64,000 bases of DNA, from positions 65,709-129,708 of the forward strand of contig CAZIEY010000002.1 of NCBI GenBank assembly GCA_964538855.1. The letters run 5' to 3'. Below are positions 6,019 through 53,653 of the stretch, piece by piece; within the stretch, counting starts at the first letter, position 1; each line of letters begins with the position of its first letter. A model generated the notes under the pieces. That model saw only the letters and a program-made list of their open reading frames with translations. It was not told the DNA's origin and searched no databases. Source of the stretch: an uncultured Candidatus Saccharibacteria bacterium. GTDB lineage: Bacteria > Patescibacteriota > Minisyncoccia > Phycocordibacterales > JAACPR01. Made by a program: the position numbers and the translations under genes.

Positions 6019-6137
6019 AAACAAAATAACTCGAAATTTTAAAAGTCTGGTTGATCATCAACACAAAACGCACATCCACTTCTGAACGTGCGTGATGCGA
6101 CCCGAGGACTTTAAAATTTCGAGTTATTTTGTTTTTT
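6019..6137. repeat. Palindromic intergenic element, copy 1 (long form)
   Basis: Outer inverted repeat aaaacaaaataactcgaaatttt / aaaatttcgagttattttgtttt encloses a conserved core, ttaaaagtctggttga...gcgacccgaggactttaaaa, with an inner hairpin (acgcac...gtgcgt). Starts 1 nt after the clpB stop and abuts the tRNA-Tyr 3' end. Confidence 0.75.
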
Positions 6138-6224
6138 TGGTGCGCAGAGAAGGATTCGAACCTTCGTAACCCATTGGGTGACAGATTTACAGTCTGTTGT
6201 AATTGACCACTCTACCATCTGCGC
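6138..6224 (-). tRNA. tRNA-Tyr (anticodon GUA), type II long variable arm; CCA encoded
   Basis: Reverse complement reads GCGCAGA-TG-GTAGAGTGG...AGACTGTAAATCTG...CACCCAATGGGTTACG-AAGGTTCGAATCCTT-CTCTGCGC-A-CCA. Acceptor pairing is perfect, the T-loop is TTCGAAT, and the anticodon loop is CTGTAAA. Confidence 0.9.
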
Positions 6225-6327
6225 AATACATACTATACTAACCGTTTTTGAGGTGATTGTCCATCATGGAAAGTCATCTTTTGTTGACATCGCTAATAAC
6301 TATTAGTATAATATTACCCATACAAAT

Positions 6328-6948
6328 ATGTTTAATCACGACGACTCAAAGGATTTTTATGCAAACATCTCGTACTTCCTTGCGGTTACTATAGGGGTTT
6401 TTGCCGTTACTTTTGGGACCTTGTATTATTTGAATTTGGTTCCTGGTTCGCTTCGACAAGCGGCCACCTTGCCGGAAGAAGAAATAGAAGATGTCGAGGA
6501 CGCTCCAATCAGTGCTACTTTGCCGGATCGAATTACCATTCCAAAAATAGGACTTGATGCAATTGTTGGGCATGCGCCTTCACAGGACATTGCGACACTC
6601 AATAGATATGTTGCAGCTGGCGCAGTGTATTATCCTGGGTCTGGAACAATAGAGCAGGGGAATATGTTCGTATTTGGCCACAGCTCTGATTTGTATCGCT
6701 CGGTGCAAAATCCTGCCGACAAGGTTTTTAATAATTTGACCAAGCTTTCTGCTGGCGATGAAATCACTGTGACAGGGGATGGTCAACGATATGTGTATGT
6801 TGTTACTTCCGTTCGTGCCGCCAAGGAGGACACAGAATTGGTGACTTTTGATACTTCTAAGCGTCGAATTACGCTTTCTACTTGTAATACTTTTGGCGAG
6901 AAACAGGATCGTACTGTGGTTGAAGCCGAATTTAGCTATAGTTTATAA
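6328..6948 (+). CDS. Sortase-family transpeptidase
   Basis: N-terminal TM anchor, beta-barrel motifs PDRITIPKIGLDAIV and FVFGHSS, the active-site TLSTC motif (ITLSTCNTF), and a conserved downstream Arg. Confidence 0.8.
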   Translation: MFNHDDSKDFYANISYFLAVTIGVFAVTFGTLYYLNLVPGSLRQAATLPEEEIEDVEDAPISATLPDRITIPKIGLDAIVGHAPSQDIATLNRYVAAGAVYYPGSGTIEQGNMFVFGHSSDLYRSVQNPADKVFNNLTKLSAGDEITVTGDGQRYVYVVTSVRAAKEDTELVTFDTSKRRITLSTCNTFGEKQDRTVVEAEFSYSL

Positions 6949-6973
6949 GGGTATTTGAGACTATCAATATTGC

Positions 6974-7002
6974 TTGACAAAAGTATACAAGGTGATATAA
7001 TA
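6974..7002 (+). promoter_or_regulatory. Sigma-70-like promoter (TTGACA-16-TATAAT) upstream of the 7092 gene
   Basis: ttgaca at 6974-6979 and tataat about 16 nt downstream. Followed by SD aggagaag 7 nt before the ATG at 7092. Confidence 0.5.
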
Positions 7003-7091
7003 TATTTCAGGAGTTTAGGTGATGCGTCGTTACGCGTTATTCTGAGCTTGCTCATTCTCAAATCTCGAACCAACCCCCTAGGAGAAGTATC

Positions 7092-7964
7092 ATGTGGATG
7101 TGGACCTGGATCAAAACTCATAAGGCGCTGACGGCACTTGTAGTCTTGGCGATTGCCATTGCGGTGACTGCCTGGAGGAAGTGGCCTGATACCACCAAGA
7201 TCGAAGCGTCCGCAAAGGCTGAAATGCATGTTAAACTGCAGCAGCTTGAGGACGAGAAAAAGGTCTTAGCGGATAAACTTGCGAGTTCGGAAAAGTTCAC
7301 CAAAGAGTTGGATGAATGGAGCACGCAGCAAACAAATAAGCTTGCTGCCGTGTCGAACGAACTCGTGCAGGTCAAAGCAGCTCTTGAAGCTGCTACTAAG
7401 CCGGCGACTACAGACGCGGTGGAGCGGGCTTCAAACCCCAGTTCATCGGTGTCGTCGACCCTGACGATCAAGGTGCAGGAGAAGAGTCAGGCAGTTGACC
7501 GAGAGCACGCCGAGGCAAAGCTGCAAGGCATGTTCACTTCGGGAACGTTGGTTGATCCAAAGGCGCCTGTTGAAACCCAGCGTGCCTTCGGAGAAGCTCT
7601 AGCCTCGATGTCTGTTCCCAGCAAGTCTGGTGCAGACCTCAAGGTGACGGAGCGCTTCGTTCCTGCGGGATATCTGTTGGTTCCCACCTGGGAGCAGCAA
7701 CAGACAAAGCTGGGTGGAAACCCAGAGATCGATATCCCCCTGTACAAGGGTGAGTTGGTTGCGGGAACTAAGACCGCTCCACCTGTCGATATCGACTTGG
7801 AATCGGGATACTACTGGTTCCATGTCACCGATGCAAAATTGGTGAATCGGGCGTGGAAACACGCCGTTGAGCAAGAGGTACTTTGGGGCAGAAAGAAAGG
7901 AACTGCGCCCAAGACCCCTTCTCCTCGATCCAGCTTCTTCGGAAGAGGGTCGAGGACATCATAA
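7092..7964 (+). CDS. Hypothetical membrane-anchored coiled-coil protein; conspicuously GC-rich gene
   Basis: 290-aa ORF with strong SD. N-terminal TM (ALTALVVLAIAIAVTAW) followed by a coiled-coil (KLQQLEDEKKVLADKLASSEKF). G+C is visibly above the flanking genes. Confidence 0.6.
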   Translation: MWMWTWIKTHKALTALVVLAIAIAVTAWRKWPDTTKIEASAKAEMHVKLQQLEDEKKVLADKLASSEKFTKELDEWSTQQTNKLAAVSNELVQVKAALEAATKPATTDAVERASNPSSSVSSTLTIKVQEKSQAVDREHAEAKLQGMFTSGTLVDPKAPVETQRAFGEALASMSVPSKSGADLKVTERFVPAGYLLVPTWEQQQTKLGGNPEIDIPLYKGELVAGTKTAPPVDIDLESGYYWFHVTDAKLVNRAWKHAVEQEVLWGRKKGTAPKTPSPRSSFFGRGSRTS

Positions 7965-8110
7965 AGTCGTGGGGGTCGCAAGAGTGAGGATAAACACTCA
8001 AGCGACCTGGTCCATGCAATACGCGTCTCCCGTCTGGGCGACGCGTTTTCATTTGACAAATACTCTTACATATGGTATCATATTAATGAAAATAAATTAT
8101 TTAAAAATAT

Positions 8111-9133
8111 ATGAGTTTATCATTCAACACAAAGAAATATATCAAAATTATCGCATCTTTAATGTGCGTGTTTGCTTTGGTTCCTGGTAGTGTTCATGCA
8201 TTTACAACTATTGCTCCTCAAGATGGTTCATTTACTACAATCGCGCCGCAAGACAGTTCGGTTACAACTATTGCTCCTCAAAATGGATCGGTTACAACTA
8301 TTGCTCCGACGCATCACCAAGACTCGTCTTTTACTACAATCGCACCCTCATACGGTGGTTCTAGTAATTATGGTTCATACGGCGGATCTATCAACTACGG
8401 TGGTTACTCCGGCTATTCAAGCGCATACAGCTACGGCACAAACGGTCCTTCATATACGCCTCGATGGAATCCGAATGTTGGCAACTGGTCTGCGAGCTAC
8501 CAAACAAATTATGCGGTGAATGCCCCTGTTCCAAATACACCAGCTTTCGTTAACGGAAACGGCGGAGAAGTTGATATGAGTGGTTGGACTACAGACTATC
8601 GATTAACATACGGAACAAATACAAGCACAGATTATCGCGTAACTTGTTTCGTTGAAGATACAACTGTTCGACGTGGTGACGATGTAGAATTTTCTGCTCG
8701 AGCTATCGGCGGTTCTGGTGACTACGAATACGAATGGTTTGGTGACGACGGTATCGACAGTTCACGAGATGAATTCGAACATGACTTTGATCACGATGGT
8801 GTGTATCGTGTTTCTGTTGAAGTAACAGATGCGGATGGTTACACTACTTCTGATGATTGTGATCCTATATATGTCGGACAGGGTTATTACGGAGTAAATT
8901 ATGTCCAAGATTACGGCTCACCAGAAGGTGAATTGGCAAATACTTCGTCTGTGTATTTGAGCCAGGTGCCTTATACAGGTGCCAAAGACAATGCGAAAAT
9001 CATTGGTCTTGTCGCACTTGTTGCAGTGTGGTCGGTCGCTCTCGGGTATTATTTCTTGAAGCGCCGAAGCACTCAGGCCGTTTCTAACCGAATTGCAGAT
9101 TTCAAGAAGGCGAATCTCGCAAGTCGAATCTAA
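8111..9133 (+). CDS. Cell-surface protein with tandem repeats, a PKD-like domain and an LPXTG-like (VPYTG) sorting signal
   Basis: Signal peptide, then five ~10-aa repeats (FTTIAPQDGS and variants) and a G/S/Y-rich segment. A PKD-like motif follows (YEYEWFGDDG...HDGVYRVSVEVTDADGYTTS). The C-terminus is VPYTG + hydrophobic helix + KRRS tail, the classic sortase-substrate architecture. Confidence 0.7.
   Translation: MSLSFNTKKYIKIIASLMCVFALVPGSVHAFTTIAPQDGSFTTIAPQDSSVTTIAPQNGSVTTIAPTHHQDSSFTTIAPSYGGSSNYGSYGGSINYGGYSGYSSAYSYGTNGPSYTPRWNPNVGNWSASYQTNYAVNAPVPNTPAFVNGNGGEVDMSGWTTDYRLTYGTNTSTDYRVTCFVEDTTVRRGDDVEFSARAIGGSGDYEYEWFGDDGIDSSRDEFEHDFDHDGVYRVSVEVTDADGYTTSDDCDPIYVGQGYYGVNYVQDYGSPEGELANTSSVYLSQVPYTGAKDNAKIIGLVALVAVWSVALGYYFLKRRSTQAVSNRIADFKKANLASRI
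8201..8362 (+). repeat. Five tandem ~30-39 bp in-frame coding repeats inside the surface-protein gene
   Basis: tttacaactattgctcctcaagatggttca / tttactacaatcgcgccgcaagacagttcg / gttacaactattgctcctcaaaatggatcg and two more variants. Confidence 0.8.
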
Positions 9134-9138
9134 TACGA

Positions 9139-9223
9139 ATCAAACAAAAAACTCTTATATTTTAAAAGTCTGGTTGAGCGAAAGCGACCCGAGGACTTTA
9201 AAATTAAGAGCTTTTTTGTTTGG
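9139..9223. repeat. Palindromic intergenic element, copy 2 (short form) between convergent genes
   Basis: caaacaaaaaactcttatattttaaaagtctggttga-gcgaaa-gcgacccgaggactttaaaattaagagcttttttgtttgg. Same core ends as copy 1, no inner 45-bp module, and the outer arms are again self-complementary. Confidence 0.75.
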
Positions 9224-10996
9224 CTACTTCTGATCTAATCGAGTTGCAATTTCTTCTTTGATTCGAGCAACCAAATCTGATTCCGAAAATGCGATTTTAT
9301 CGCCGGAACGCAATTCAACTTGGAATGTTTTTGATTCAACTTCTTTGTCACCGATTACCACAAGGTACGGCACTTTGTAATTTTTAGCTTCGTGAATACG
9401 TTTACCGAGGCTGCTGTTGCCGCTATACGTAGTGCATCGAATGCCGTTTTCGCGCAACACGTCGTGCAATTTTTTCGCAGCTTCGTCATGATTTTCACGC
9501 ACTGGAATTACCGCAACTTGAATTGGTGACAGCCATGTAGGGAAGTTTCCAGCAAAATGTTCAATCAAAAATCCGATGAACCGTTCGTGAGTTCCAAGGG
9601 GTGCGCGGTGAATGATCGCAGGTGTTTTTCGAGTGCTGTCTTTATCGGTATATTCGAGCCCGAATTTTTTACCCATGTATAAGTCGAGCTGATTTGTCGA
9701 AGCGGTAAATGAGCGTCCGATCGATGAATAAATTTGGAAGTCCATTTTTGGTCCGTAGAATGCAGCACCTTCGTGAGCAATTTTAAATGGTACGCCAGAT
9801 TTTTTCATGGCTTCAATCGTCATATTTTCTGCATCCTTCCAATCATTTTCGTCACCATGATATTTATCCATTTTGTTTGGATCACGCAATGCCAATTCCA
9901 TTTCATAGTTAGTGATACCGAGAATTTCGTAATAGTATTGGTGCATTTTAATTACATTCACAAATTCATCAACCGCTTTTTCTTTTTGAATATAGATGTG
10001 GGCATCATTCATTTGCATTCCTCGAACACGCATCAAACCAAAAAGACTGCCAGAATCTTCGAATCGGTGGCACCAGCCGTATTCAGCGAGGCGCACTGGC
10101 AAATCGCGATAACTTTTTGGTCGAGCTGCAAAAGTTTTATGGTGGAAAGGACAGTTCATTGGCTTGATGTAGTAATTTTCTTCCTCGATTACAATCGGAG
10201 CGTACATACTGTCTTTGTATAATGGCAAGTGACCAGACGTATGGAAGAGGTGCTCTTTTGTAATGAGCGGAGTTGTGACGCGTTGATAGCCCCATTTTTC
10301 TTCGGTTTCTTTTGCCCACTTTTCCAATTCTTCTTTTATAATGTTTCCATTTGGCAACCAAATTGGAAGTCCTTTACCAATTTCTTCGTCGAAATAGAAA
10401 ATGTCCATCGCATCGCCAATTTTTCGGTGATCACGTTTTTCAGCTTCTTCGAGATTTTTCTTGTAAGCCTCAAATTCCGCTCCAGTTTCAAACGCCACGC
10501 CGTAAATTCGTGTGAGCATTTTGTTTTTTTCGCTACCACGCCAATATGCGCCGGCGATTTTTGTGAGCTCGAATCCGTCGGCATCAATTTCGCTCGTGTT
10601 TTCAATGTGAGGGCCTGCGCAGAGATCGGTGAATTTATCACCGGTTTTGTATACAGACAACGTTGCGCCGTCTTTGATAAGGTCGGCAATTAATTCCATT
10701 TTATATGGTTGGTCTGCAAACATTTTCTTTGCTTCGTCTGCGGTCACTTCTGCATACGTGAAAGGGAGTTTGCCACCAATTAACTTTTTCATGCCTTTCT
10801 GAAAATCCTTCAATTCTTTTTCAGTCGGAGCTTTTCCTTCGCTAAATTCAAAATCGTAATAAAACCCATTATCAATAACCGGTCCAATCGCCAATTTGGC
10901 TTTCGGATCGAATTTAAGCACTTCGATTGCAAGAAGGTGCGCCAAAGAATGGCGAACTTTCGCAACGTGCGCTACGTTGTTGTCTGTTTTTGTCAT
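9224..10996 (-). CDS. thrS: Threonyl-tRNA synthetase (short form without the N-terminal TGS domain)
   Basis: Class II aaRS catalytic core and C-terminal anticodon-binding domain. The N-terminus starts at the editing-domain HxxxH region (VRHSLAHLLA); 590 aa. Confidence 0.9.
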   Translation of the reverse strand: MTKTDNNVAHVAKVRHSLAHLLAIEVLKFDPKAKLAIGPVIDNGFYYDFEFSEGKAPTEKELKDFQKGMKKLIGGKLPFTYAEVTADEAKKMFADQPYKMELIADLIKDGATLSVYKTGDKFTDLCAGPHIENTSEIDADGFELTKIAGAYWRGSEKNKMLTRIYGVAFETGAEFEAYKKNLEEAEKRDHRKIGDAMDIFYFDEEIGKGLPIWLPNGNIIKEELEKWAKETEEKWGYQRVTTPLITKEHLFHTSGHLPLYKDSMYAPIVIEEENYYIKPMNCPFHHKTFAARPKSYRDLPVRLAEYGWCHRFEDSGSLFGLMRVRGMQMNDAHIYIQKEKAVDEFVNVIKMHQYYYEILGITNYEMELALRDPNKMDKYHGDENDWKDAENMTIEAMKKSGVPFKIAHEGAAFYGPKMDFQIYSSIGRSFTASTNQLDLYMGKKFGLEYTDKDSTRKTPAIIHRAPLGTHERFIGFLIEHFAGNFPTWLSPIQVAVIPVRENHDEAAKKLHDVLRENGIRCTTYSGNSSLGKRIHEAKNYKVPYLVVIGDKEVESKTFQVELRSGDKIAFSESDLVARIKEEIATRLDQK

Positions 10997-11011
10997 ACCT
11001 GTGAATTATAC

Positions 11012-14000
11012 CTATTTTATAAGATTTTCCAATGTCGCCGCCTTGTCGACGAGTAAACTGAATTCGCCGTTGCGATCCGAATATTTTCCCTTAACAATAA
11101 TACAATTGCCCGGAACGAGTATAGTTTTGGACTTTTTGTACATTTCGGGGAAAAATACAACCTCGGCGGTGTCATTCGCGTCGGCGATTTGTACAAATGC
11201 CATCGCTGCGCCCTTTTTGGTCAAAATTTCTTTGACCGTTTCAACGTGTCCAATGAGTTTAAGTTCAACTCCGGCCTTTGCAGTTTTTTTAATTTTTGAA
11301 ATATTGAAGTCCGATTTCGCAAATTTTCCGCTATATTTGTCGAGAGGGTGGCCGGAAATGTAGAGACCGAGTAATTCTTTTTCCCATCGCAATTTTTGAT
11401 CGTTTGAAACCGGTTCGGCTTTTGTTAATTTCAATTTCGGCGCCGCGACAAGGTCAGAATTCGCAAACAAATTTGTCTGAGATTGTGATGCTTTCGCGAT
11501 TTCTTTGTTGTAGGCTAAAATCTCGTCCAAATTTTCAAGCATTTCATTTCGCTCTCCAAATGAATCGAGCGCGCCAGTTTTAATTAATGCTTCGAGAGAT
11601 TTTTTATTGAAAGCCCGACTGTGAACGCGCGAGATAAAGTTTTCAAGCGACGTATATGGTCCGCGCGCCTTTCGCTCTTCAATCATTTCAAGGGCGATAC
11701 CTTCACCAAAGTTTTTAATACTGCTGAGTCCAAAACGAATATCGCCGTCTGGGTGACCTTCTGGATTAGCTGCATTTTTTCTTTCGACCACAGCAAAGTC
11801 GACGAATGATTCGTTGATGTCGGGTGGCAATACGCGAATCCCAATTTTTTTACACTCCGCAATCATTTCAGCGATTTTTTCAACTTCACCAGAATCGGAT
11901 GTCAAAACGGCCGCCATATAAATGACAGGGAAGTTTGCCTTCAAATATGAAGTTAAATACGCAACGCGACCGTACGAAGCAGCGTGACCTTTGTTGAATC
12001 CGTAGGCGGCGAATGTTTCAATTGACTCCCACAAATGTTGTGTGTCTGATTTTGAAAGCCCACCTTTTTCAATACAACCTTTGGTGAATTTTTCGTACTC
12101 AGCCTTCATAACCTCGGGAATTTTCTTACCCATGGCTTTACGGAATTTGTCGGCTTCTCCCCATGAATATCCCGCTATCTTCACAGCAATCATCATAATA
12201 TCGTCTTGATAAATCAAAACTCCGTAGGTGCCTGCGATAATTTCTTTGAAGCGATCGTCGATGTACGTCACTTTGCTTGGGTCGTGTTTACGTGCGATAT
12301 AATCGGGAATGAAAGCCATCGGACCTGGACGGTAGAGCGCCACCATCGCGTTGATGTCGTTGATGTTTGTTGGTTTGAGCTCTTTCAAAAAGCGTGTCAT
12401 ACCCTGACCGTTCAATTGGAAAGTTGCCGCAGTTTCGCCACGTGCGAGCATCTCGTATGTTTTTTTGTCATCGAGTGGAATCGTTTCTGTATCCAAATCG
12501 AGTCCGCGAATTTTTTTAATAATGCGCAGAGTGTTTCCGATGATGGTTAAGTTTTTCAAACCAAGGAAGTCAAATTTCAAAAGCCCGATGCCGTCTTCAC
12601 CGACCGCGTGCATGTCGTACTGAGTAATTAATTTTCCTTCACCTTTTGGATCATATTGTACGGGCACGTGTTCGATCAGGGGGTCAGGAGAAATCACCAC
12701 ACCTGCGGCGTGGACACCAATGTGACGGGCGCAGCCTTCGATTTTTTGGGCCATATCGAGAATTTGTCCGACCTCTTCGTCGCTCTCGTACATTTCTTTC
12801 AGCTCAGGAACTTCATCAAGTGCCTTTTTGATGGTCATTGGAAAACCTTGCGCACCCATTGGAATTAATTTTGCAATTCTGTCGGCGATAGAAATTTCAA
12901 AACCCATAGCACGAGCAGCGTCGCGCACAGATCCACGGGCAAGCATAGTACCGAAAGTTCCGATTTGAGCCACGTGATTCGCACCATATTTTTCACGTAC
13001 GTAGGCGAGCAATTCGTCACGTCTATCGTCGGCAAAGTCCATATCGATGTCGGGCGCAGACGGACGTTCTGGATTGAGGAAGCGTTCAAACGGCAAACCG
13101 AACGCAATCGGATCAACTGCGGTAATTCCGACGAGATAGGAAATGTACGAACCAGCTGCGGAACCTCTTGTATTACTTTGGATTTTTAATTCTTTTGCTT
13201 TAGAAAAAAGATCCGCCACCACGAGGAAATATTTTGAGTAGCCTTTTTGTGAAATAATTTTAAGTTCGTAATCGATACGTTCTTGAATTGACGGCGTTAT
13301 GTCGATACCTTTTTTCACAGCGCCAGCCAAAGCCATTTCACGTAACGCTTCGTCCGCAGTTTTGCCACCAGGAATTATGAAGTTGGGGAATTTCCATTGT
13401 TTGAGGGGAATTTCCAAATTGCAAGCATCGACGATTTTTTGAATGTTGTCGAGAGCTTCTGGTGTGTCTTTAAAAAACTCGTTCGCTTTTTCTTGTGTTG
13501 TAAATGAAAAATCCTCTGTCGTCGTATCAAAAGTAGACTCTTTGCCACCGAAACTGCTTTGTACGGAAAGGAGAGTTCGTCGCGCACCGTAATCGTCCGG
13601 TTTGATGTAATAGACGTCGTTTGCTGCGACGAGTGGAATTTTTTCGGTCGCTGCGAATTTCTTGATTTTTTCGGTAAGCGCAGGGAATTCGGCAATTTCA
13701 GGGTGATGTAATAATTCGAGGTAAAAATCATCGCCGAAAATACCACGCAAAAATTGCGCTGTCTCACGAGCTTTCTCGGCTTCATCATTTTTCAGGTGCA
13801 CGGAAATTTCCCCAGCAAACGCGGGTGAAATACAAATCAAATCATTGTGATATTTTTCGAGTAACTCGCGGTCGATGCGCGGTTTGTAATAAAAACCTTC
13901 GAGATGCGAATAGGTGACGAGCTTGATGAGGGTTTTGTAGCCTTCGAAATTTTTTGCGAGCAACACGAGTCGTGTGCGCCGGTTATCGATACGCCCCTCT

Positions 14001-14242: not shown

Positions 14243-14322
14243 CTATTATAGATGAAAAATTGTATTTTGCATAAGTATAAGAATTTCATATACAAAATAT
14301 CTAAGCGAGGTATAATTCTGGC

Positions 14323-15171
14323 ATGATAGATCAAAATCAATCAAACAACCAAACGCCACATTTTACTTCACCAGAAGTTACATCAATAAGAAATTATAAA
14401 CCGTATGTGTATGTTGCTATCCTCGCACTTATTGCAGTCGCAGGACTCGGATATTATGTGATGCCAGAAAAATATACACATCAACCGAGCTCTGTCCTGG
14501 AAGATGTACCAAATGCATCAAGCACTCCGGTTATTACGCAGCCAGTAACTCCACAAAATCCGAACCCAGTTGTAAATCCCACTCCTGAGCCAATCGCCTG
14601 CACAATGGATGCGATGATGTGTCCGGACGGAAGTTATATTGGTCGAAGTGGACCGAATTGCGAGTTTGTGTGTAAACAAAATCCGATAATTGACCGTGCG
14701 AGAGAAGTTTTGTTTATGTTGCAAAATAAAAATTACTCACAACTCGAGGAATTTATCAGTTCAGATGGTTTAGCTCTCAATAACCTTCCGAATGTAAACC
14801 TGACTAAAAATAACGTATTAAAGAAGGATATTTCCGATATTCCAAATGATTCAAAGGTGCATCTCTGGGGGTATACCGACGGGAAAGGGGACCCAATTAA
14901 CTTAACGACGAAAGATTTTATTGAGAAATGGATTACTCCAGAATTATTTATTAATGCTGATGAAATCGTTGTAAACAAAATTAAAGATGAAGGAACAAAC
15001 AGTTTGAATACTGTTTTACAAGATGCGGGAAATCGGACAGTTATCGGATTTTATCACGCAAGTGATGCAGCTTACCCAGGGTTAAATTGGGCGACCTTAT
15101 ATCTAGTTTTTGATCAGGAAAATGGCGTGTATATGTTACGTGGGATTTCAAGAAACCAGTGGTCAATTTAA
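14323..15171 (+). CDS. Hypothetical membrane-anchored protein with a Pro-rich linker
   Basis: 282-aa ORF with a TM helix (YVYVAILALIAVAGLGYYV) and a PVITQPVTPQNPNPVVNPTPEP linker. No recognisable catalytic motif. Confidence 0.55.
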   Translation: MIDQNQSNNQTPHFTSPEVTSIRNYKPYVYVAILALIAVAGLGYYVMPEKYTHQPSSVLEDVPNASSTPVITQPVTPQNPNPVVNPTPEPIACTMDAMMCPDGSYIGRSGPNCEFVCKQNPIIDRAREVLFMLQNKNYSQLEEFISSDGLALNNLPNVNLTKNNVLKKDISDIPNDSKVHLWGYTDGKGDPINLTTKDFIEKWITPELFINADEIVVNKIKDEGTNSLNTVLQDAGNRTVIGFYHASDAAYPGLNWATLYLVFDQENGVYMLRGISRNQWSI

Positions 15172-15184
15172 GAAGAAAAGGTGC

Positions 15185-15817: not shown

Positions 15818-15860
15818 TCTCTTGCCAAAAAACCGTATATCTGCTATTCTATTCAGCATT

Positions 15861-16121: not shown

Positions 16122-16172
16122 ACAAATAACTGGCACTTGGCCGGTTTTTTGTTATACTAGAAAAGTATTCAT

Positions 16173-17072
16173 ATGGCGAATCGGCACCTTTCCAGATCAA
16201 TAGTGTTACAAACGCTTTTCGAAAGCGATGTGCGTGAAAAAGGATTAAAAGAATCCGAGGAGATTTTGATACGAAACGCAACTGAATTTGCAGAAGGAAC
16301 TTCTGATTCAGGCTTTATGATGGGTCTCTTGGCGACAGTTTTAGGCAAGCAAACTGAAATTAATAACATTATTGAAAAGGCGGCGCCTGACTGGCCTCTC
16401 GAAAAAATCTCGGTGATTGATAGAAATGTGCTGCGAATTGGTCTCGCGGAATTAATTTTTGGAAATCGTGCTGAAGTGCCGGCAAAAGTTGCAATTAACG
16501 AAGCGATTGAGCTCGCCAAAGCGTTCGGTGGTGAATCGTCTGGCAAATTCGTGAATGGAGTTTTGGGGGCGGTATACAAAGAACTTGGTGAACCCGGAAA
16601 AGACGAGGTGGCGAAGGACAAAAAAGTTCACGAAAAAATTCCGACCGAAACAAAGGCGGGTGCAATTATTTATGCACGCCAAGGAGAAGAAATTTATATG
16701 GCGCTCGTGCATGACGTATTTGGGCACTGGACTTTGTCAAAAGGTGGCATTGAAAAAGATGAAAATCCAGAGGAGGGTGTGGTGCGTGAGATAAAAGAAG
16801 AGCTCGGTCTTGAAATAATCGTTCGTGATAAAATTGGTGAAAATCAGTATATTGCAAATCACCCAGAGCGCGGAAAGATTCGCAAACACGTTGTGTATTT
16901 TTTGGCAGAAGCAGAGTACGCTGAAATCAAGCTCGAAAAATCAGGCGGGCTTGATGACGCACGATGGTTTAAATTAAAAGAGATACTTGATTTGAATTTT
17001 TATGATGATATTATGCCGCTCATCACGGATGCGGTGAAAAAAATTAGTAAACTCACGAAATTACCTTCGTAA
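16173..17072 (+). CDS. nusB: NusB (N-terminal ~140 aa) fused to a C-terminal NUDIX hydrolase domain
   Basis: The N-terminal half is NusB-like ([18 protein letters not shown]...[28 protein letters not shown]). The C-terminal half carries a Nudix box [24 protein letters not shown] (Gx5Ex7REUxEExGU). Confidence 0.8.
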
Positions 17073-17078
17073 ACTCTT

Positions 17079-17768
17079 ATGGATTTTAAAATTTTAGAGA
17101 AAAAAATCGGCATTGATTTCAAGGATAAAAATTTATTGAAACAAGCTTTTACACATCGCTCTTACCTAAATGAAAATCGTAAATTAGAAATGGGGCATAA
17201 TGAACGCCTCGAATTTTTGGGTGATGCGGTGCTCGAACTCGTGACAACTGATTTTTTGTATCATAAATACCCAAAGAAAGACGAAGGGGATTTAACTTCT
17301 CTTAGATCAGCACTAGTGAACACTATTACTATTTCAGAAACAGCGTCGGAACTTGGTTTCAATGAATACTTGTTAATGTCTCGAGGGGAAGCCAAAGACA
17401 CAGGTCGCGCGCGTCAATATATTTTAGCAAACACATTTGAATCGGTAATTGGTTCAATTTATCTTGATGGTGGATATGCCGAGGCTTTAAAATTCATTTC
17501 TACTTTTCTATTACCAAAACTAGATGAAATCGTCGAAAAGGGTTTGTGGTTGGATGCGAAAAGTAAGTTACAAGAAATTTCTCAAGATAAGTTTTCGATG
17601 ACACCCCTATACGAAACGATTAAACAAACAGGGCCAGATCACGACAAGACATTTACTGTTGTTGTGACATATGGCAAGGGTAAAAAAGCCGAAGGTGACG
17701 GAAAATCAAAACAAGAGGCCGAACAAGATGCGGCGCGCAATGTCCTTGTCGACGAAAATTGGTTATAA
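17079..17768 (+). CDS. rnc: Ribonuclease III
   Basis: ERLEFLGDAVLELV signature and a C-terminal dsRBD. Confidence 0.9.
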   Translation: MDFKILEKKIGIDFKDKNLLKQAFTHRSYLNENRKLEMGHNERLEFLGDAVLELVTTDFLYHKYPKKDEGDLTSLRSALVNTITISETASELGFNEYLLMSRGEAKDTGRARQYILANTFESVIGSIYLDGGYAEALKFISTFLLPKLDEIVEKGLWLDAKSKLQEISQDKFSMTPLYETIKQTGPDHDKTFTVVVTYGKGKKAEGDGKSKQEAEQDAARNVLVDENWL

Positions 17769-17776
17769 TATACCTC

Positions 17777-19999
17777 ATGAATTTGAAGTCGCTAGAAATA
17801 AATGGTTTCAAGTCCTTTGCGAAAAAGGCGATTTTGAATTTTAACGCGCCAATTTCTTCGATTGTGGGACCGAATGGTTCTGGAAAATCTAACGTGGCAG
17901 AAGCGTTTCGATTTGCACTTGGTGAACAATCTTTTAAATCGATGCGTGGAAAACGTGGCGAAGATTTGATTTTTGGTGGAACGGCGACTGTACCAAAACA
18001 AAATCGGGCGAGCGTGAAAGTGACTTTGGACAACTCTGACAAAAAATTACCAATTGATTTCGAAGAAGTTATTTTAGAGCGCGTTGTACACCGTGACGGT
18101 GTGAATGAATATCTGATTAATGGATCACAGGTACGTTTGCGTGATATTAACGAATTGCTTGCTTCTGCAAATATTGGTTCGAGTGGTCATCACATCATTT
18201 CTCAGGGTGAGGCGGACCGGCTTTTGAATGCTTCAATCAAGGAGCGCAAGCAGACGTTAGAAGAAGCACTCGGCTTACGAATTCACCAATACAAAAAAAT
18301 TGAGAGTCAAAAGAAGTTACAGAAAACTCGTGAAAATATCGAGAAGGTCGAATCGTTACGTCGCGAGATTATTCCGCATTTGAAATTTTTGAAAAAGCAG
18401 GTGGAAAAAATTGAGGAAGGTAAAAAGCTCAAAGAAAGTTTGAAGGCGGCGTATCAGACGTATTTGAAAATCGAATCACTCTATTTGCAGGCTGAAAAAA
18501 ATCGTATCGCAGTGGAAATCACTGTACCAAAAGATCGTCTCAAAGAAATTGAGCGTGATATTCAAAAATATGAGGTGGAAACTAAACAGGCAATAAATAA
18601 TGCCCTTGTCGAAGCCGTTAAGCAAGGTGAAACAAATGTGTCGGCTATCTTTGCTTTAAAAAGCGAATTACAGAGAAAAATCGGGCGTCTGGAGGGGCAA
18701 ATCAGTTCGCTTGAGAAATTAAGGGAAAAAACTGAAAGAAAAGAGCAGTTTAGTTCGCTTACACTTTCGTCTGAAGATGTGCACACGCTCAAAAAAGAGA
18801 GTGAATTGATGGAGGTGAATGTCGGCAATATCGAACTATTGCGCGAAGTCGTAACGCGCGTGATTGCATTTATAAAGAAAATTACTCAGTCAAACTATTC
18901 AAACGAAAAGGAGAATGTTTTTTACGACGAGGAAATTAAAAATTATCGCGCCGAATTGGCGGAGGCTGAAGATGAATTGGTTGTGGCTGAGCAAAAAGAA
19001 TTGCATGCTCAACAAACTCTCGCTGATGCGCGCGTCGCTTTGGAAGCTGATAAATCTCAGTCGTTTGAAGCGGAAAAGAAAATTATTGCTCTTATGTCGG
19101 AAAAAAATGATTTACAAAAAATTGTTTCAAATTTTGCAATTGCACTCGACATTTTGGAACGTGACGAGGCTGCGTATAAATTGGAATTGACCGAGGCAGC
19201 GGTGCTCGTAGGTCGTGACGTGCTCGAATTTGAATCAGTTGTGGTGCCGACTAATGAATCGCGTGATGCACAAATTTCTCGTCGCAAAGATTTGGAGCGA
19301 ACGAAAATCAAGGTTGAAGAATCTGGTATTGGATCAGGTGATGATACCATAAAAGAATTTAAAGAAGTTTCAGATCGCGATGTATTTTTGCTTGCCGAAA
19401 TTACTGATTTGGAAAATTCTGCACAATCGCTCGAAATGCTCATCGTGGATTTGGAAAATAAGATAGAAACTGAGTTCGAGTCGGGTCTCGAAAAAATCAA
19501 CACCCAATTTCAAAAGTTTTTTGAGCTTATGTTTGGTGGGGGAAGTGCTTCTCTCAAGAAAATCAAAATCGCAGCACGTAAACGCAAAGACACGGATTTG
19601 CTATCCGAAGACGACATGGAAAATCCAGAAGAGTTTGATGAAGGTGAGGAAGGTGTCGACATCAGTGTGAATTTACCTCGCAAAAAAGTGCGGGATTTGA
19701 TGATGTTATCGGGTGGGGAACGCGCGCTGACTTCGATTGCGCTTTTGTTTGCAATTTCTCAGGTCAATCCGCCACCATTTATTATTTTGGATGAAACTGA
19801 TGCCGCCCTCGACGAAGCAAATAGCCGAAAATACGGTGACATGATCGAAAGTCTTTCAAAATATTCTCAACTCATTCTAATTACTCATAATCGAGAAACG
19901 ATGTCGCGCGCAGGAATTTTGTATGGTGTGACTATGATGCATGGCGTATCCCAATTATTGTCGGTCGCGTTTGAGGAGGGTGTGAAGTTTGCGAAGTAG
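17777..19999 (+). CDS. smc: SMC-like chromosome segregation ATPase (short, ~740 aa)
   Basis: N-terminal LEINGFKSFA...IVGPNGSGKSNVAEAFRFALGEQS Walker A. C-terminal signature LSGGERALTSIALLFAI plus Walker B ILDETDAALD, with long coiled-coils. The start was moved to MNLKSL (17777) because the track start overlaps rnc. Confidence 0.8.
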   Translation: MNLKSLEINGFKSFAKKAILNFNAPISSIVGPNGSGKSNVAEAFRFALGEQSFKSMRGKRGEDLIFGGTATVPKQNRASVKVTLDNSDKKLPIDFEEVILERVVHRDGVNEYLINGSQVRLRDINELLASANIGSSGHHIISQGEADRLLNASIKERKQTLEEALGLRIHQYKKIESQKKLQKTRENIEKVESLRREIIPHLKFLKKQVEKIEEGKKLKESLKAAYQTYLKIESLYLQAEKNRIAVEITVPKDRLKEIERDIQKYEVETKQAINNALVEAVKQGETNVSAIFALKSELQRKIGRLEGQISSLEKLREKTERKEQFSSLTLSSEDVHTLKKESELMEVNVGNIELLREVVTRVIAFIKKITQSNYSNEKENVFYDEEIKNYRAELAEAEDELVVAEQKELHAQQTLADARVALEADKSQSFEAEKKIIALMSEKNDLQKIVSNFAIALDILERDEAAYKLELTEAAVLVGRDVLEFESVVVPTNESRDAQISRRKDLERTKIKVEESGIGSGDDTIKEFKEVSDRDVFLLAEITDLENSAQSLEMLIVDLENKIETEFESGLEKINTQFQKFFELMFGGGSASLKKIKIAARKRKDTDLLSEDDMENPEEFDEGEEGVDISVNLPRKKVRDLMMLSGGERALTSIALLFAISQVNPPPFIILDETDAALDEANSRKYGDMIESLSKYSQLILITHNRETMSRAGILYGVTMMHGVSQLLSVAFEEGVKFAK

Positions 20000-20000
20000 A

Positions 20001-20040
20001 TTGACTATATTATTGCTTTTTAAAAAAGTAGAGTTATAAT
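20001..20040 (+). promoter_or_regulatory. Candidate promoter for the GC-rich unit upstream of rnr
   Basis: ttgact 20001-20006 and ttgctt 20014-20019 as alternative -35 elements; tataat at 20035-20040. Spacing of 15 or 28 bp is suboptimal either way. Confidence 0.35.
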
Positions 20041-20091
20041 CGTATTTGGATGCACTGAAACCACAACGCAAGCACTGGAGGTAAAGACCAC

Positions 20092-20202
20092 ATGTCAAAG
20101 CGTCACGAAAAACAAAAAGCGAAGAAAAGGCACAGAGAGGCTAGCAATGGAGGTCCGTCTAGCAATTCGGGGACTCGGCAGAGCGGTAGAGGGGGTAAAT
20201 AG
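20092..20202 (+). CDS. Candidate small basic protein (36 aa) with strong SD; could instead lie within a structured RNA
   Basis: SD ggaggt is 9 nt upstream of the ATG. MSKRHEKQKAKKRHREASNGGPSSNSGTRQSGRGGK. Not in the ORF track because it is under 60 aa. Confidence 0.35.
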   Translation: MSKRHEKQKAKKRHREASNGGPSSNSGTRQSGRGGK

Positions 20203-20204
20203 CC

Positions 20205-20366
20205 ATGGCGCTTAAACCCCTGAAGTTCACATGCCGAAATCCTTGTTTCCGCTCGATTGACGGTACTGGCGGTGGCAAAGGAAAACGGGTGTTCGTTGCC
20301 CGTAAACTCTCGAAGGGTGCTTGCCCTTCCGCTTCTGGTATTCCCAATAAGGCGAGGTGGGAATAA
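20205..20366 (+). CDS. Candidate small protein (53 aa) with strong SD, immediately downstream
   Basis: SD gaggggg is 9 nt upstream of ATG 20205. MALKPLKFTCRNPCFRSIDGTGGGKGKRVFVARKLSKGACPSASGIPNKARWE has three Cys. A GC-rich segment inside an AT-rich genome. Confidence 0.35.
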   Translation: MALKPLKFTCRNPCFRSIDGTGGGKGKRVFVARKLSKGACPSASGIPNKARWE

Positions 20367-20390
20367 TCGTTTCTCTCCCTTGTCTCATTT

Positions 20391-20421
20391 GGCCCGCGCA
20401 AGCACGCGGGCCTTTCCTTTT
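20391..20421 (+). terminator. Rho-independent terminator
   Basis: ggcccgcgcaagcacgcgggcc is a perfect 8-bp stem, followed by tttccttttat. Confidence 0.7.
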
Positions 20422-20449
20422 ATCTACAAACTGCTACCATATATATCAA

Positions 20450-22381
20450 ATGCCAGATTCAACTTTCGAGGGGATTATTAATATAAGTACAAAGGCGGTT
20501 GGATACGTGCGAAATCCAAATGGGGGTGATGACGTGGTGATTGAGAGTGCTGATTTAAACAAAGCCCTCAACGGCGATAAAGTTCGCATTCAATTACAAG
20601 CTGCGACTGTCGATGGAAAGCCAAAAGGCGAAGTGACTGCGATTCTTTCTCGAGCTCGTGAACAATTCGTAGGTACTGTTTTGAAAAAAGAAACTGGTTG
20701 TGAAATTTTACCAGACAATCGTCGCATTCATGTGCGTTTTAATTTGCCGGAGGCCGATGCGGAAAAAACTGCTGCAAACGACAAGGTACTCATCAAATTG
20801 GGTGATTGGATTGATGAGAGTCAAAACCCAAGTGCAAAGCTTCTCAAAATTTTTGGTCAGAAAGGCAAACACGAAGTCGAAATGCAATCGATCATTTACG
20901 ACAAAGGTTTCGATTCAGAATTTCCAGCCGAAGTTGAGGCCGAAGCAAAACGCCTCAAGGCAGAATGGACTCCAATTCCTGCCGCAGAAATCGCAAAGCG
21001 TCGCGACATTCGCGAGAAAAACGTTTTTACAATTGACCCGTATGACGCAAAGGACTTTGACGACGCCCTCCACATTATTCCGCTTGAAAATGGGAATTTC
21101 GAAGTTGGTATTCACATCGCCGACGTTTCAAATTTCGTGACGCCGGGCAGCGCTTTGGACCGTGAAGCACATGAACGTGCGTTTTCTGTCTATCTCGTTG
21201 ACCGCACAATTCCGATGTTGCCAGAAATTTTGTCGAACGAACTTTGCTCGCTTAATCCGAACGAAGACAAAATGTCATTCAGTGCCATTTTTGAAATGAA
21301 CGCCAATGCCGAAGTCGTTTCTCGATGGTTTGGGAAAACAATTATGAATTCCAAAAAGCGCTTCACGTATGAAGAAGCTCAAGCGGTGCTCGACGCGGAA
21401 TCAGGACCTCTCGCTGCGGACTTGCTCAAAATGAATGAGCTCGCCAAAATCATGCAAAAGCGTCGAAAGGAAAGTGGCGCCATCGATTTTGAAAGTCAAG
21501 AAATTAAATTCGAGCTCGATAAAGATGGTCACCCAATTCGCATCATTAAAAAAGACCGTATCGACACAAACAAATTGGTCGAGGAATTTATGCTTCTTGC
21601 AAACAAAGAAGTAGCGAAATTTATTTACGATCAAAACAAAAAAGTCGGAGGCAACGACATTGGTCTTATGTATCGAATTCACGATGTCCCGAACCCTGAC
21701 AAAATTAAACAACTCGCATTGTTCCTCAAAGCGATGGGATATGTGTTGCCCATTAATGACGAAGGTAGTATCACAGCAAAAGACTTGAACGCACTTTTCG
21801 AAAAAGTGGCTGGCAAAGCAGAAGAAGCACTCGTGAAAACCGCGTCTGTGCGAACAATGAGCAAGGCGATTTATTCAACCGAAAATTCCGGTCACTTTGG
21901 TTTGGCGTTTGAATATTACACGCACTTTACATCGCCGATTCGGCGTTATCCGGACTTGCTTGTGCACCGCATTCTGCAAGCCTTTTTAACGAACAAAAAA
22001 TTGGAAGAAAGCGAATTGCAACATTTCCAAGAATCAGCTAGCCGTTCAAGTGAACGCGAAGTCAACGCTGCTGATGCAGAACGTGATTCTATCAAATATA
22101 AACAGGCCGAATACATGGCGGATCATATTGGCCAAGTTTATGAAGGTGTGATTTCCGGCGTGTCTGCATGGGGAATTTATGTTGTGGTTGATGAAACTCT
22201 CGCCGAAGGTATGGTGCACATCTCAAAACTCGGCAACGATTTCTTTAACTTGGATGAGAAAAATTACGCAATTGTCGGCGAGAAAACCAAAGTCCGCTTC
22301 AGTTTGGGCGATAAAATTAAGGTAAAAGTTGAAAAGACTGATTTGGACAAGAAAAACATAGATTTTTCTTTGGCGAAATAA
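20450..22381 (+). CDS. rnr: Ribonuclease R
   Basis: RNB catalytic domain (IDPYDAKDFDDALH), cold-shock/OB domains, and a C-terminal S1 domain. The start was moved to MPDSTFEG; the upstream part of the track ORF covers the GC-rich unit. Confidence 0.85.
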   Translation: MPDSTFEGIINISTKAVGYVRNPNGGDDVVIESADLNKALNGDKVRIQLQAATVDGKPKGEVTAILSRAREQFVGTVLKKETGCEILPDNRRIHVRFNLPEADAEKTAANDKVLIKLGDWIDESQNPSAKLLKIFGQKGKHEVEMQSIIYDKGFDSEFPAEVEAEAKRLKAEWTPIPAAEIAKRRDIREKNVFTIDPYDAKDFDDALHIIPLENGNFEVGIHIADVSNFVTPGSALDREAHERAFSVYLVDRTIPMLPEILSNELCSLNPNEDKMSFSAIFEMNANAEVVSRWFGKTIMNSKKRFTYEEAQAVLDAESGPLAADLLKMNELAKIMQKRRKESGAIDFESQEIKFELDKDGHPIRIIKKDRIDTNKLVEEFMLLANKEVAKFIYDQNKKVGGNDIGLMYRIHDVPNPDKIKQLALFLKAMGYVLPINDEGSITAKDLNALFEKVAGKAEEALVKTASVRTMSKAIYSTENSGHFGLAFEYYTHFTSPIRRYPDLLVHRILQAFLTNKKLEESELQHFQESASRSSEREVNAADAERDSIKYKQAEYMADHIGQVYEGVISGVSAWGIYVVVDETLAEGMVHISKLGNDFFNLDEKNYAIVGEKTKVRFSLGDKIKVKVEKTDLDKKNIDFSLAK

Positions 22382-22461
22382 TTCGGCGTATTAAAATTGT
22401 AAAACCCCGCTGAGCGATTGCTCGAGCGAGGCAGAAAGAGGGCGCCTCTTTCTAATGCGAG

Positions 22462-22959
22462 TCACCAGATGTCCGGACCTTCTTGGATGACCTCGATGGT
22501 GCCGGGTTGGTAACCCTCCTCTCCGGATCGTCCTGCATTCAGCAGACGTTGGAGTTCTTGAGCGTTACTGGTTGTAATCGTTATTGTGACGAACCCATCA
22601 GCCGGGAAGTGTTTCCGAATCACACGAATGTACAGCTGCCGCCTGACTCCACCTGCGTCCAGCATTTCTTTGAACAGGTAACGGACCTTATCGTTGTGAC
22701 ACATGAGGTAATGAAGGTCGCGCCAGCAAGCTTCACGAATAACCTGACGTGCAGCGTCCATATTTTCGTACATGGCGCGAAAAGCTTCCAGTGTAACCTC
22801 ATGAAAATCATGAGTAGGCAAGGAGATCGTGCCAGCCTTAGCCGTCACCAACAAATCACGGCACTTTCTTGCCTGCGTAATATCAAACTTCTCGCGACCC
22901 CACATGAGGTCGTACAGTCCTTGGTAAAACGCAAAGACCTGCTCCATAGGCTTTTTCAT
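22462..22959 (-). CDS. Hypothetical protein; GC-rich gene
   Basis: 165-aa ORF with no recognisable motif and markedly higher G+C than its neighbours. Convergent with rnr, with a palindromic hairpin (agaaagagggcgcctctttct) between them. Confidence 0.5.
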   Translation of the reverse strand: MKKPMEQVFAFYQGLYDLMWGREKFDITQARKCRDLLVTAKAGTISLPTHDFHEVTLEAFRAMYENMDAARQVIREACWRDLHYLMCHNDKVRYLFKEMLDAGGVRRQLYIRVIRKHFPADGFVTITITTSNAQELQRLLNAGRSGEEGYQPGTIEVIQEGPDIW

Positions 22960-23165
22960 CGTCTATACTCCCGAAAGGTCATGTTTTTCACGATGACCAA
23001 CGTGAAGCTTGGCAAACCGACGTGGTAGCCATAGCCAATAAATTCCTAGGTGCAAGAATCTCTTGGCTATGGCTAACAGTGTGTAAAAGAACTTTGGATA
23101 CAATTATATCACATATAAGACACATGTCAAATACTGCGTATCACACCAATATCCAAGTGTATCAG

Positions 23166-23194
23166 TTGACCAAAATCACGTATTCTGTTAGTAT
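23166..23194 (+). promoter_or_regulatory. Promoter TTGACC-17-TAGTAT placing the start site about at the rpsP ATG (probably a leaderless mRNA)
   Basis: ttgacc at 23166-23171 with a 17-nt spacer, then tagtat at 23189-23194. The ATG sits 7 nt after the -10 element and there is no SD. Confidence 0.5.
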
Positions 23195-23201
23195 TTCACC
23201 C

Positions 23202-23549
23202 ATGTTATCAATACGACTACAACGAGTAGGTCGAAAGAACGAACCAGCATTTCGTTTTGTTTTGACTGACTCAAAAAATTCAACAAAAAGCGGCAAGTTT
23301 TTAGAAATTCTTGGTTCACACGATCCTCGCAATAAAAAGGCGACTGTCATGAATGTGGAACGAATGAAGGAACTTATTGCCCAGGGTGCAAAACCTTCTG
23401 ACACAATCACAAACATGTTGATTGAGAAAAAGGTAATCACAGGAAAGAAAATCAACGTTCTTCCAAAGAAAAGCCCGATTAAAAAAGAGGGTGCGGACGC
23501 GGCGGCGGCTCCAGCAGCAGAAGCTCCAAAAGAAGAAGTGAAGGCATAA
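23202..23549 (+). CDS. rpsP: Ribosomal protein bS16 with an Ala/Lys-rich C-terminal tail
   Basis: MLSIRLQRVGRKNEPAFRFVLTDSKNSTKSGKFLEILGSHDP...AQGAKPSDT matches the bS16 consensus. The track start at 23022 was trimmed. Confidence 0.85.
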   Translation: MLSIRLQRVGRKNEPAFRFVLTDSKNSTKSGKFLEILGSHDPRNKKATVMNVERMKELIAQGAKPSDTITNMLIEKKVITGKKINVLPKKSPIKKEGADAAAAPAAEAPKEEVKA

Positions 23550-23585
23550 GCTTCATAAAAACTGTCCGAAAGGGCGGTTTTTCAT

Positions 23586-23615
23586 TTGACAAACCACTGT
23601 TTTTTGATTTATAAT
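23586..23615 (+). promoter_or_regulatory. Promoter TTGACA-18-TATAAT upstream of the KH-domain gene
   Basis: ttgaca at 23586-23591 and tataat at 23610-23615. Confidence 0.5.
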
Positions 23616-23672
23616 ATAACCTAGGCAGTGCGTAATGCACGCTGAAAGTGTTTTAAGAATAATAAACCATAC

Positions 23673-23987
23673 ATGACTGACAATAAAGAACTAGACTATC
23701 AATTTCTAGAGTACGTGGTTAAAAATCTCGTAGACAAGCCGGATGAAGTCAAAATCACCCGAACAGTCGACGAAATGGGAGTGCTACTTACTTTGGGAGT
23801 GAGCCCGGAAGACATGGGAAAAATTATTGGTCGACAAGGTAACACAGCAAAAGCTATTCGAATTTTGCTTCGAGTGGTAGGTATGAAAAATACAGCACGT
23901 GTAAACTTGAAGATTAACGAACCAGAAGGAGGATCTCGAGTCGCGCCAAAATCAGTTGATGAGGCGGTGGATGATTTGAAGCTTTAG
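23673..23987 (+). CDS. KH-domain RNA-binding protein (YlqC/UPF0109-like)
   Basis: The GXXG KH core is LTLGVSPEDMGKIIGRQGNTAKAIRILL. It sits in the typical position after rpsP. Confidence 0.75.
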   Translation: MTDNKELDYQFLEYVVKNLVDKPDEVKITRTVDEMGVLLTLGVSPEDMGKIIGRQGNTAKAIRILLRVVGMKNTARVNLKINEPEGGSRVAPKSVDEAVDDLKL

Positions 23988-23989
23988 CT

Positions 23990-24117
23990 AAGAAAAACAA
24001 AGTAACTAAATTTTAAAGTCCTCGGGTCGCATCACGCACGTTCAGAAATGAATGTGCGTTTTGTGTTGATGCTCAACCAGACATTTAAAATTTAGTTACT
24101 TTGTTTTTCTTGACAAG
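23990..24117. repeat. Palindromic intergenic element, copy 3 (long form, inverted orientation)
   Basis: aaaaacaaagtaactaaattttaaagtcctcgggtcgc...ctcaaccagacatttaaaatttagttactttgttttt. Near-exact reverse complement of the copy-1 core, including the 45-bp inner module. The outer arms, taactaaa / tttagtta, are self-complementary but differ from copy 1. Confidence 0.75.
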
Positions 24118-53494: not shown

Positions 53495-53653
53495 ATTTAT
53501 TGTTATGAAAATCATTGTAAACAACATCGCCACCGAATACACGGATGAGGGCTCTGGCCCAGTCATTTTGTGTTTACATGGATGGAAGGACAGTTTGCGA
53601 ACATTTGATGCGCTCGAGCCTGAATTAGTGAAAAAAAATGTAGAAAACTCCGC
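53495..53653 (+). pseudogene. Truncated duplicate of the 5' end of the alpha/beta hydrolase gene
   Basis: 53495..53610 is 116/116 identical to 54135..54250, both starting exactly at the ATG. It then diverges and hits a stop after 13 codons (52 aa). Confidence 0.7.

Follow-up and report, generated by a model that had tools for sequence, protein, structure and literature searches.

The 64,000-nucleotide stretch of contig CAZIEY010000002.1 analysed here (positions 65,709 to 129,708; the window) carries three intergenic palindromic elements, c1, c2 and c3. On balance, and by a modest preference, we regard these as copies of an undescribed family of small, non-coding, interspersed mobile palindromic repeats of the Parcubacteria/Paceibacterota, selfish-like in character and not a dedicated regulatory RNA. 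The initial annotation of this DNA had taken the compensatory changes in the stems as an argument for a regulatory RNA and against mobility. That argument could not be upheld, since the element is gained and lost at individual sites, exchanges its long and short forms, is found inverted in place, nests within itself, occurs in both orientations and also enters 5' untranslated regions (5'UTRs). Nor is covariation proof against mobility, because compensatory changes in mobile repeats have a precedent in bcr1 (PMC3184786).

Elements in the window

The copies, their parts and a plain terminator with which they are compared lie as follows (L numbers denote the sequences compared with the window).

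6017-6137, + strand: copy c1, long form, filling the entire spacer from the clpB stop to the tRNA-Tyr 3' end
6044-6109, + strand: c1 core, with a bulged A at 6044, GTCTGGTTGATC at 6045-6056, the 40-nt inner module at 6057-6096 and GCGACCCGAGGAC at 6097-6109
6068-6093, - strand: c1 inner hairpin, of canonical intrinsic terminator form, with an 11-bp stem and a GAAG loop followed by UUUGUGUUGA
9141-9222, + strand: copy c2, short form, its core (9168-9196) reading GTCTGGTTGAGC-GAAA-GCGACCCGAGGAC
23990-24111, - strand: copy c3, long form, inverted, within the rpsP-khpA-(rimM)-trmD gene row
24034-24067, + strand: c3 inner hairpin, ACGCACGTTCA GAAA TGAATGTGCGT with a T-rich tail, the same module as in c1
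23557-23582, + strand: plain terminator of the rpsP-khpA spacer, AAAAACTGTCC GAAA GGGCGGTTTTT, the 'empty' state of a site which is filled in L005, L009 and L011

The claim that three copies share a core was borne out: the 20-mer GCGACCCGAGGACTTTAAAA has exactly three matches in the window, at 6097 (+), 9184 (+) and 24011 (-), where chance predicts 0, and the left core half TTTTAAAAGTCTGGTTGA stands at the corresponding places of all three copies with 0-1 mismatch. The outer arms, as had been proposed, differ between copies and pair within each. Those of c1 (6017-6043 and 6110-6136) are complementary at 27/27 positions and those of c3 at 28/28, while the 26-nt arms of c2 show an ungapped complementarity of 77%, the misfit being accounted for by two 1-nt bulges. 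The inner module described for the two long copies is indeed shared by c1 and c3, possesses its own hairpin and is missing from c2, where GAAA stands in its place; its size is 40 nt and not the 45 bp first given. All three copies fold much better than shuffled sequences on either strand (z = -5 to -13), c1 reaching a free energy of -48 kcal/mol (z -9.2).

Distribution and anatomy of the family

Exact 20-mer scans led to L001, a species-representative genome, and to the metagenome contigs L002-L004, and the orthologous regions of relatives were gathered via KhpA, ThrRS and a CxxC-x17-CxxC protein, giving 333 kb of related DNA. The search for the core which the initial annotation had advised thus yielded further copies: with the window's three included, 12 independent loci possess GTCTGG...C(C)GAGGAC with complementary flanks, as against 0-2 in shuffled sequence. 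They fall in two genus-level Parcubacteria lineages, that of the window and a second, distant one consisting of L001 and L018-L024; the source organism was assigned to the Parcubacteria/Paceibacterota on the names under which its thrS homologues are listed. An identical core is seen in all window copies and also at loci from other assemblies, and the lineages which have it in common possess TGT proteins that are only 60% identical (the proxy for the second lineage being the TGT of its relative L030, compared with that of the window).

The elements measure ~80-180 bp (82-180 bp among the loci), contain no open reading frame (ORF) and are intergenic in every case. From base to apex each consists of an AT-rich stem of 25-38 bp, the sequence of which differs among copies; a 5'-side bulge of one base (A, T, C or G), found in all copies; a 4-bp helix, GUCU/GGAC, which includes a U.G pair; a 3-nt 3'-side bulge, CGA; a GG/CC pairing lengthened to GGUUG/CGACC in most copies; and a freely variable apex. 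The core hairpin of the short form is 29 nt long and has two bulges. Four forms of the apex were recognized, namely GAAA (c2, L003), a 12-nt insert (L001, L018_2), the 40-nt module (c1, c3, L002, L004, L005 and L013) and a second whole copy, reversed (4971-5007 inside 4932-5051 of L021). The 40-nt module has the form of a terminator on the strand opposite to the core, with an 11-bp stem containing G.U pairs, a GAAR loop and then UUUUGUGUU; in L002 it shows a compensated change of G-C to A-U.

The outer 10-20 bp of the arms are unlike between copies and only the inner part beside the core is common within subfamilies; some arm sequence (AACTC..., TGTTTGATTTTAAAA) is shared by copies at different loci. 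Because the plain terminators of the window were found in a custom scan to have short A/T tracts, the long AT-rich arms are mostly a property of the element and not of the host.

With the Rfam covariance models only tRNAs reached the gathering score in the window, and at E-values up to 10 only spurious miRNA-hairpin matches arose, on L002-L004. Scanning viral contigs with two gapped core patterns gave 0 matches. Further long AT-rich hairpins with unrelated centres occur at 762-813 and 833-918 of L002 and at ~9858-9935 of L025, one of them holding TTTGAGCGAGGACT; long palindromes with structured tips seem to be frequent in these genomes.

Covariation and strand asymmetry

Applied to 10 copies, RNAalifold recovered 36 pairs, and in 18 of these both sides had changed. 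A covariation test was undertaken on the 12 independent loci, trimmed to arms and core halves, against 500 shuffles. The paired cells amounted to 92.4%, compared with 71.7 +/- 1.4% in the shuffles, none of which (0/500) reached the observed value; 26 of the 35 pairs were changed on both sides, and pairing fell to ~62% when the partner was slid by one column. That the stems covary, as the initial annotation held, is amply confirmed. The paired changes extend right up to the core (TTTTAAAA/TTTAAAA, TTTTTTGA/CAAAAAA, TTTTTATG/CTAAAAA and TTTGTGAGA/CGAACAAA), and since these flanks are inverted repeats even when non-palindromic they are stems and not target duplications.

The principal alternative is that the element is a functional cis-acting RNA module, in which the bulged helix would be a site of protein binding or cleavage (by RNase III, for example, or another structure-specific RNase), the long stem and U-tract would terminate or stabilise transcripts, and selection on the RNA would keep the pairing. 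We consider it unlikely, but the very strict conservation of the bulged core makes it a rival to be taken seriously. Covariation and invariant bulges speak for it, as do the variable apex with its GAAA tetraloop cap in the short forms, the G.U pairs of the core, a G-to-A core change in L009 which turns U.G into U-A, the placement in 3' and 5' UTRs and the presence in the window of an RNase III gene (17079-17768; Pfam domains are listed for its L005 and L006 orthologues). The orientation of the element, however, does not follow that of host transcription: its forward strand is sense in ~3 copies and antisense in ~4, the remainder lying between convergent genes. The G.U-compatible arm pairs number 12 on the forward and 4 on the reverse strand overall, and 11 and 0, respectively, in the second lineage, where folding favours the forward over the reverse strand by 6-15 kcal/mol; the two U.G pairs of the core point to the forward strand too. 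This bias holds in L001, L018_2 and the inner L021 copy, the forward strand of which is antisense to the host mRNA, and because it does so the pairing constraint is tied to the strand of the element and not to the host message. Such a constraint fits a single-stranded DNA (or element-borne RNA) intermediate. At the plain terminators of the rpsP-khpA and khpA 3' sites, by comparison, the G.U pairs are on the sense strand, as selection at the RNA level predicts.

An RNA module is also difficult to reconcile with an inner module structured on the strand opposite to the core, with the nested reversed copy and the in-place inversion, with the decay of the copy in L009, and with the dispensability of the element, which close relatives do without at every site examined. 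As a general warning, a repeat family cannot be called a regulatory RNA on strong base-pair covariation alone.

Turnover between close relatives

Presence and absence of the element were observed at four to five orthologous sites among relatives. The window carries the short form at the thrS/PKD site; in L013, whose ThrRS is 95% identical, the long form is found with nearly the same arms in the same orientation; and in L014-L017 (83-84% identical) the same genes are separated by a plain terminator, AAAACAAAAACAACCGCC-loop-GGCGGTTGTTTTTT. The clpB/tRNA-Tyr site is occupied by the element in the window and by plain hairpins in L013 and L014. In the rpsP-khpA spacer a plain terminator is found in the window, L006-L008 and L010 and the element in L005, L009 and L011, the L009 copy having a decayed apex and one core substitution. 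The khpA 3' site possesses the element in the window, L006, L008 and L012 and a plain hairpin in L005, L007, L009 and L010. At the filled terminator sites the A-tract and T-tract of the host are retained and the GC stem-loop is replaced, not split.

The rpsP-khpA stem is wholly different in three close relatives, being CTGTCC/GGGCGG in the window (23557-23582), TCATCTC/GAGGTGA in L007 (~2590-2625) and the element in L005 (9790-9912), while the khpA promoter and the A/T tracts that flank the stem are conserved. It seems that terminator stem-loops are swapped in their entirety.

The copies of the second lineage are situated in 5'UTRs, preceded by a clear promoter and followed by the start codon, and are without a U tail; the generalization that all copies follow a stop codon applies to the three window copies and fails for these. 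The equivalent 5'UTRs in L021, L025 and L030 are empty and hold no hairpin, which indicates that the element brings its arms along. The inner 15 bp of both arms, two G.T positions included, are common to L018_2 and the outer copy of L021, which occupy different loci. L001 and L018_1 share one locus, where they are oppositely oriented relative to the gene, yet at arm position 13, counted in the orientation of the element itself, both have a TxT mismatch, which points to in-place inversion via the inverted arms or to re-insertion. The empty 5'UTRs of L021 (7333-7510) and L025 (12119-12340) contain AAAAGTCGG(G/T)T, resembling the element end AAAAGTCCTCGGGT minus CTC, which might represent a footprint or a preferred target, or be fortuitous.

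The sites with plain hairpins raise a second alternative, that the arms are independent, pre-existing terminator hairpins of the host and that only the core is mobile, inserting into their loops with the TTTAAAA flanks as its target-site duplication. Plain hairpin terminators do occupy the same places in relatives, and c1 minus the core and one TTTAAAA is a perfect palindrome; plain and filled sites have the same outermost A/T tracts (for thrS AAACAAAAA, for rpsP-khpA AAAATAAAAA), and the outer arm of L004, AAAACAAAAACAAC, is identical to the outer stem found in L015's plain thrS terminator. We nevertheless find this improbable. The non-palindromic flanks listed above are still inverted repeats, which rules out TTTAAAA as a target-site duplication; the GC stem of the host is missing at filled sites and has not been split; the empty 5'UTR sites offer no hairpin to insert into; and arm sequence is common to different loci.

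That the core is a known structure-specific recombination or processing site, either integron attC-like or an archaeal-type bulge-helix-bulge splice motif by which the insert would be excised from RNA, is highly improbable: the two opposite-strand bulges with a 4-bp helix between them, the variable terminal structure, the strand-specific fold and a GTTGAGC which on reading the sequence fits the attC consensus GTTRRRY are all suggestive, but this heptamer is single and has no RYYYAAC partner box, the neighbours are housekeeping genes and not cassettes, the window has no integrase, the 5' bulge is in all copies one nucleotide instead of three (the 4-bp helix and 3-nt 3' bulge being as required), and a literature search found no paper joining the bulge-helix-bulge motif with these bacteria.

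Three further identities were tried and rejected. In a K-turn the tandem G.A register misfits the 3-nt bulge, and the G-to-T change of c1, as read, breaks a required pair. Domain 5 of a group II intron was dismissed for want of an AGC triad and of any Intron_gpII match. A promoter of the form TTGAGC-N17-TTTAAA fails on its spacing in the long forms.

Proposed behaviour of the element

Under this reading the DNA unit is mobile or recombinogenic, being gained and lost between close relatives, having its apex exchanged, flipping in place through its own arms and receiving a second copy in its apex. In the lineage of the window it takes the place of the GC stem-loop of an intrinsic terminator, between the A-tract and the T-tract, and there most likely acts as a bidirectional terminator or 3'-end hairpin. 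The arms would stay complementary if the folded forward strand of the element is what is recognised or propagated, possibly as a hairpin of single-stranded DNA to which a structure-specific enzyme binds, like the substrates of the REP/IS200 type. Long quasi-palindromes can self-correct by template switching, and such self-correction may add to the complementarity of the arms, for which the regulation of neighbouring genes would not be the reason.

A more specific and quite unlikely suggestion is that the core of bulge, 4-bp helix and bulge is the recognition site of a structure-specific enzyme which moves whole hairpins, their limits being set by the extent of the fold, or else that the motif lets the insert be cut from RNA as a bacterial counterpart of the archaeal bulge-helix-bulge introns. 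If true, a mover of whole hairpins would explain the variable but always self-complementary arms, the lack of a target duplication, and the fact that the element nests in hairpin tips and replaces terminator stems.

Several points weigh against a mobile repeat. The ~40 window ORFs checked included no transposase, RAYT or recombinase. There is no target-site duplication and there are no defined termini, so that no known transposition chemistry is demonstrated. The copy number is low (3 in 64 kb). The GC stem is replaced, which is not simple insertion and could come about by ectopic recombination between similar terminators. A strictly conserved asymmetric core with bulges would also be expected of a protein-binding RNA motif. 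Finally, the sample is small, and since its 12 loci are partly related by descent the counts do not represent independent events.

Comparison with known repeats

Like classical MITEs (miniature inverted-repeat transposable elements), the members of this family are small, non-coding and multi-copy and show insertion polymorphism. A classical MITE was nevertheless rejected: no consistent 2-9-bp duplication exists at the bases of the palindromes, whose flanks are inverted and not direct; the outer arms differ; and no insertion sequence with such ends was seen in the DNA examined. A conserved bulged centre with free self-complementary stems is in fact the reverse of the classical MITE layout. The view that structure is under selection and that this is not a simple MITE stands in so far as target-site duplications and conserved termini are lacking and the placement is terminator-like, at sites where relatives have plain terminators; the exclusion of mobility drawn from it does not.

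The nearest known kinds are SPRITE, bcr1, Correia/ERIC and REP/REPIN. SPRITE is a terminator-like repeat near convergent 3' ends (PMC3184786), and like the present family it is an interspersed repeat of ~100 bp with an intrinsic-terminator-like fold. There is no sequence relation, and the present family differs in its conserved bulged centre, its variable stems, its additional 5'UTR sites and its replacement of existing terminator stems. The bcr1 element of the Bacillus cereus group is non-autonomous, patchy among close strains and transcribed, with compensatory changes that keep its double-stranded structure (PMC3184786). The two are alike in a distribution which is not conserved among close relatives and in compensatory pair changes, but bcr1 has 5-bp flanking direct repeats and two independent stem-loops, whereas here no direct repeats were seen and the hairpin is single and nested.

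The Correia/NEMIS elements of Neisseria and the ERIC elements of enterobacteria are imperfect intergenic palindromes of 100-160 bp which exhibit presence/absence polymorphism (PMC3184786). In Correia/ERIC elements the terminal inverted repeats are conserved and there is a TA duplication, in contrast to the variable termini, conserved centre and absence of duplication found here. Correia/NEMIS and ERIC elements occur in a long and a short form, distinguished by an internal block, and are co-transcribed as hairpins, those of Correia being RNase III substrates that can terminate transcription.

REP/REPIN sequences (mobilized by RAYT, an IS200-like Y1 enzyme) resemble the present family as short, imperfect, extragenic palindromes with asymmetric bulges (here 29 nt in the short form and thus within the 20-40 nt of that class), often placed after genes, with a strand-specific fold and no target-site duplication. 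The arms of REPINs are likewise kept complementary. The family differs in lacking a GTAG-type motif at the 5' end of the element, in numbering tens and not hundreds per genome at the density seen here, and in embedding the hairpin within long AT-rich arms; neither a RAYT nor any other Y1 transposase was found among the window ORFs.

Genomic context and other features

A hairpin with a U-tract after a gene, the form of an intrinsic terminator, was recognized from the sequence in c1, c2, c3, L002-L004 and L013, all of which follow stop codons and have A-rich 5' and T-rich 3' stem bases. In a terminator scan of the window the inner module of the long form was the top-scoring terminator-like site of its region. 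As the initial annotation noted, c1 abuts a tRNA 3' end and c2 lies between convergent genes. Copy c1 overlaps the clpB stop codon (6016-6018) and stops one base short of the tRNA-Tyr gene (6138-6224, - strand), and its inner hairpin is predicted to be oriented so as to stop the tRNA-Tyr transcript. Copy c2 is situated between the PKD-protein gene (stop 9131-9133) and thrS (stop 9224-9226, - strand). Copy c3 starts 3 nt past the khpA stop, its inner hairpin being a terminator-like module in sense orientation for khpA, and beyond it follow a short ORF and trmD. The neighbours of the window copies are housekeeping genes (clpB, thrS, dnaE, rpsP, khpA). Cumulative GC skew climbs across the whole window and the copies lie +, + and -, giving no strict replication-strand bias (n=3).

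A TTGACA box at 24110-24115 overlaps the last bases of c3. Such -35 boxes (24110-24115 and 23589-23594) begin right at the foot of the element or terminator hairpins, which places a terminator and the next promoter back to back. Three independent contigs from short reads, L006 (end 10366), L008 (end 6895) and L012 (end 499), break inside c3, as expected since a repeated palindrome breaks assemblies.

Among the other features of the window, ARAGORN predicted a tRNA with an undetermined anticodon ('tg') at 60252-60336 (+ strand), which scores 46 bits with the Rfam tRNA model compared with ~62 for the other two tRNAs. A 132-nt direct repeat (53505-53636 and 54135-54266) is 95% identical between copies 630 nt apart, and four tandem repeats of 30-39 nt lie within the PKD-domain surface-protein gene (8202-8347). 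An exact look-up of the window sortase found it not to be on record. In L013 (~14860-14900) the last ~20 nt of tRNA-Tyr recur as an inverted duplicate beside the real tRNA-Tyr, with a hairpin between the two; the duplicate may be an integration-site remnant. A conserved palindrome, GTGAACGnnCGTTCAC, is located at 12463-12500 of L018, and at the same place in L021, L025 and L030, between the -35 and -10 boxes of a 71-amino-acid gene that lies upstream of the gene for an S24 (LexA-like) peptidase, and probably represents an SOS-type operator.

Significance

Descriptions of small interspersed repeats from the streamlined genomes of the candidate phyla radiation are very scarce, and no paper on such repeats in these bacteria was found in the literature. 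The present family would be a repeat that is active and horizontally shared in tiny genomes, where it takes over the job of terminators and invades 5'UTRs, and it explains contig breaks in the assemblies of these organisms. It also offers a clean case in which to ask whether the stem complementarity of mobile palindromes arises through selection on a single-strand intermediate or through template-switch self-correction.

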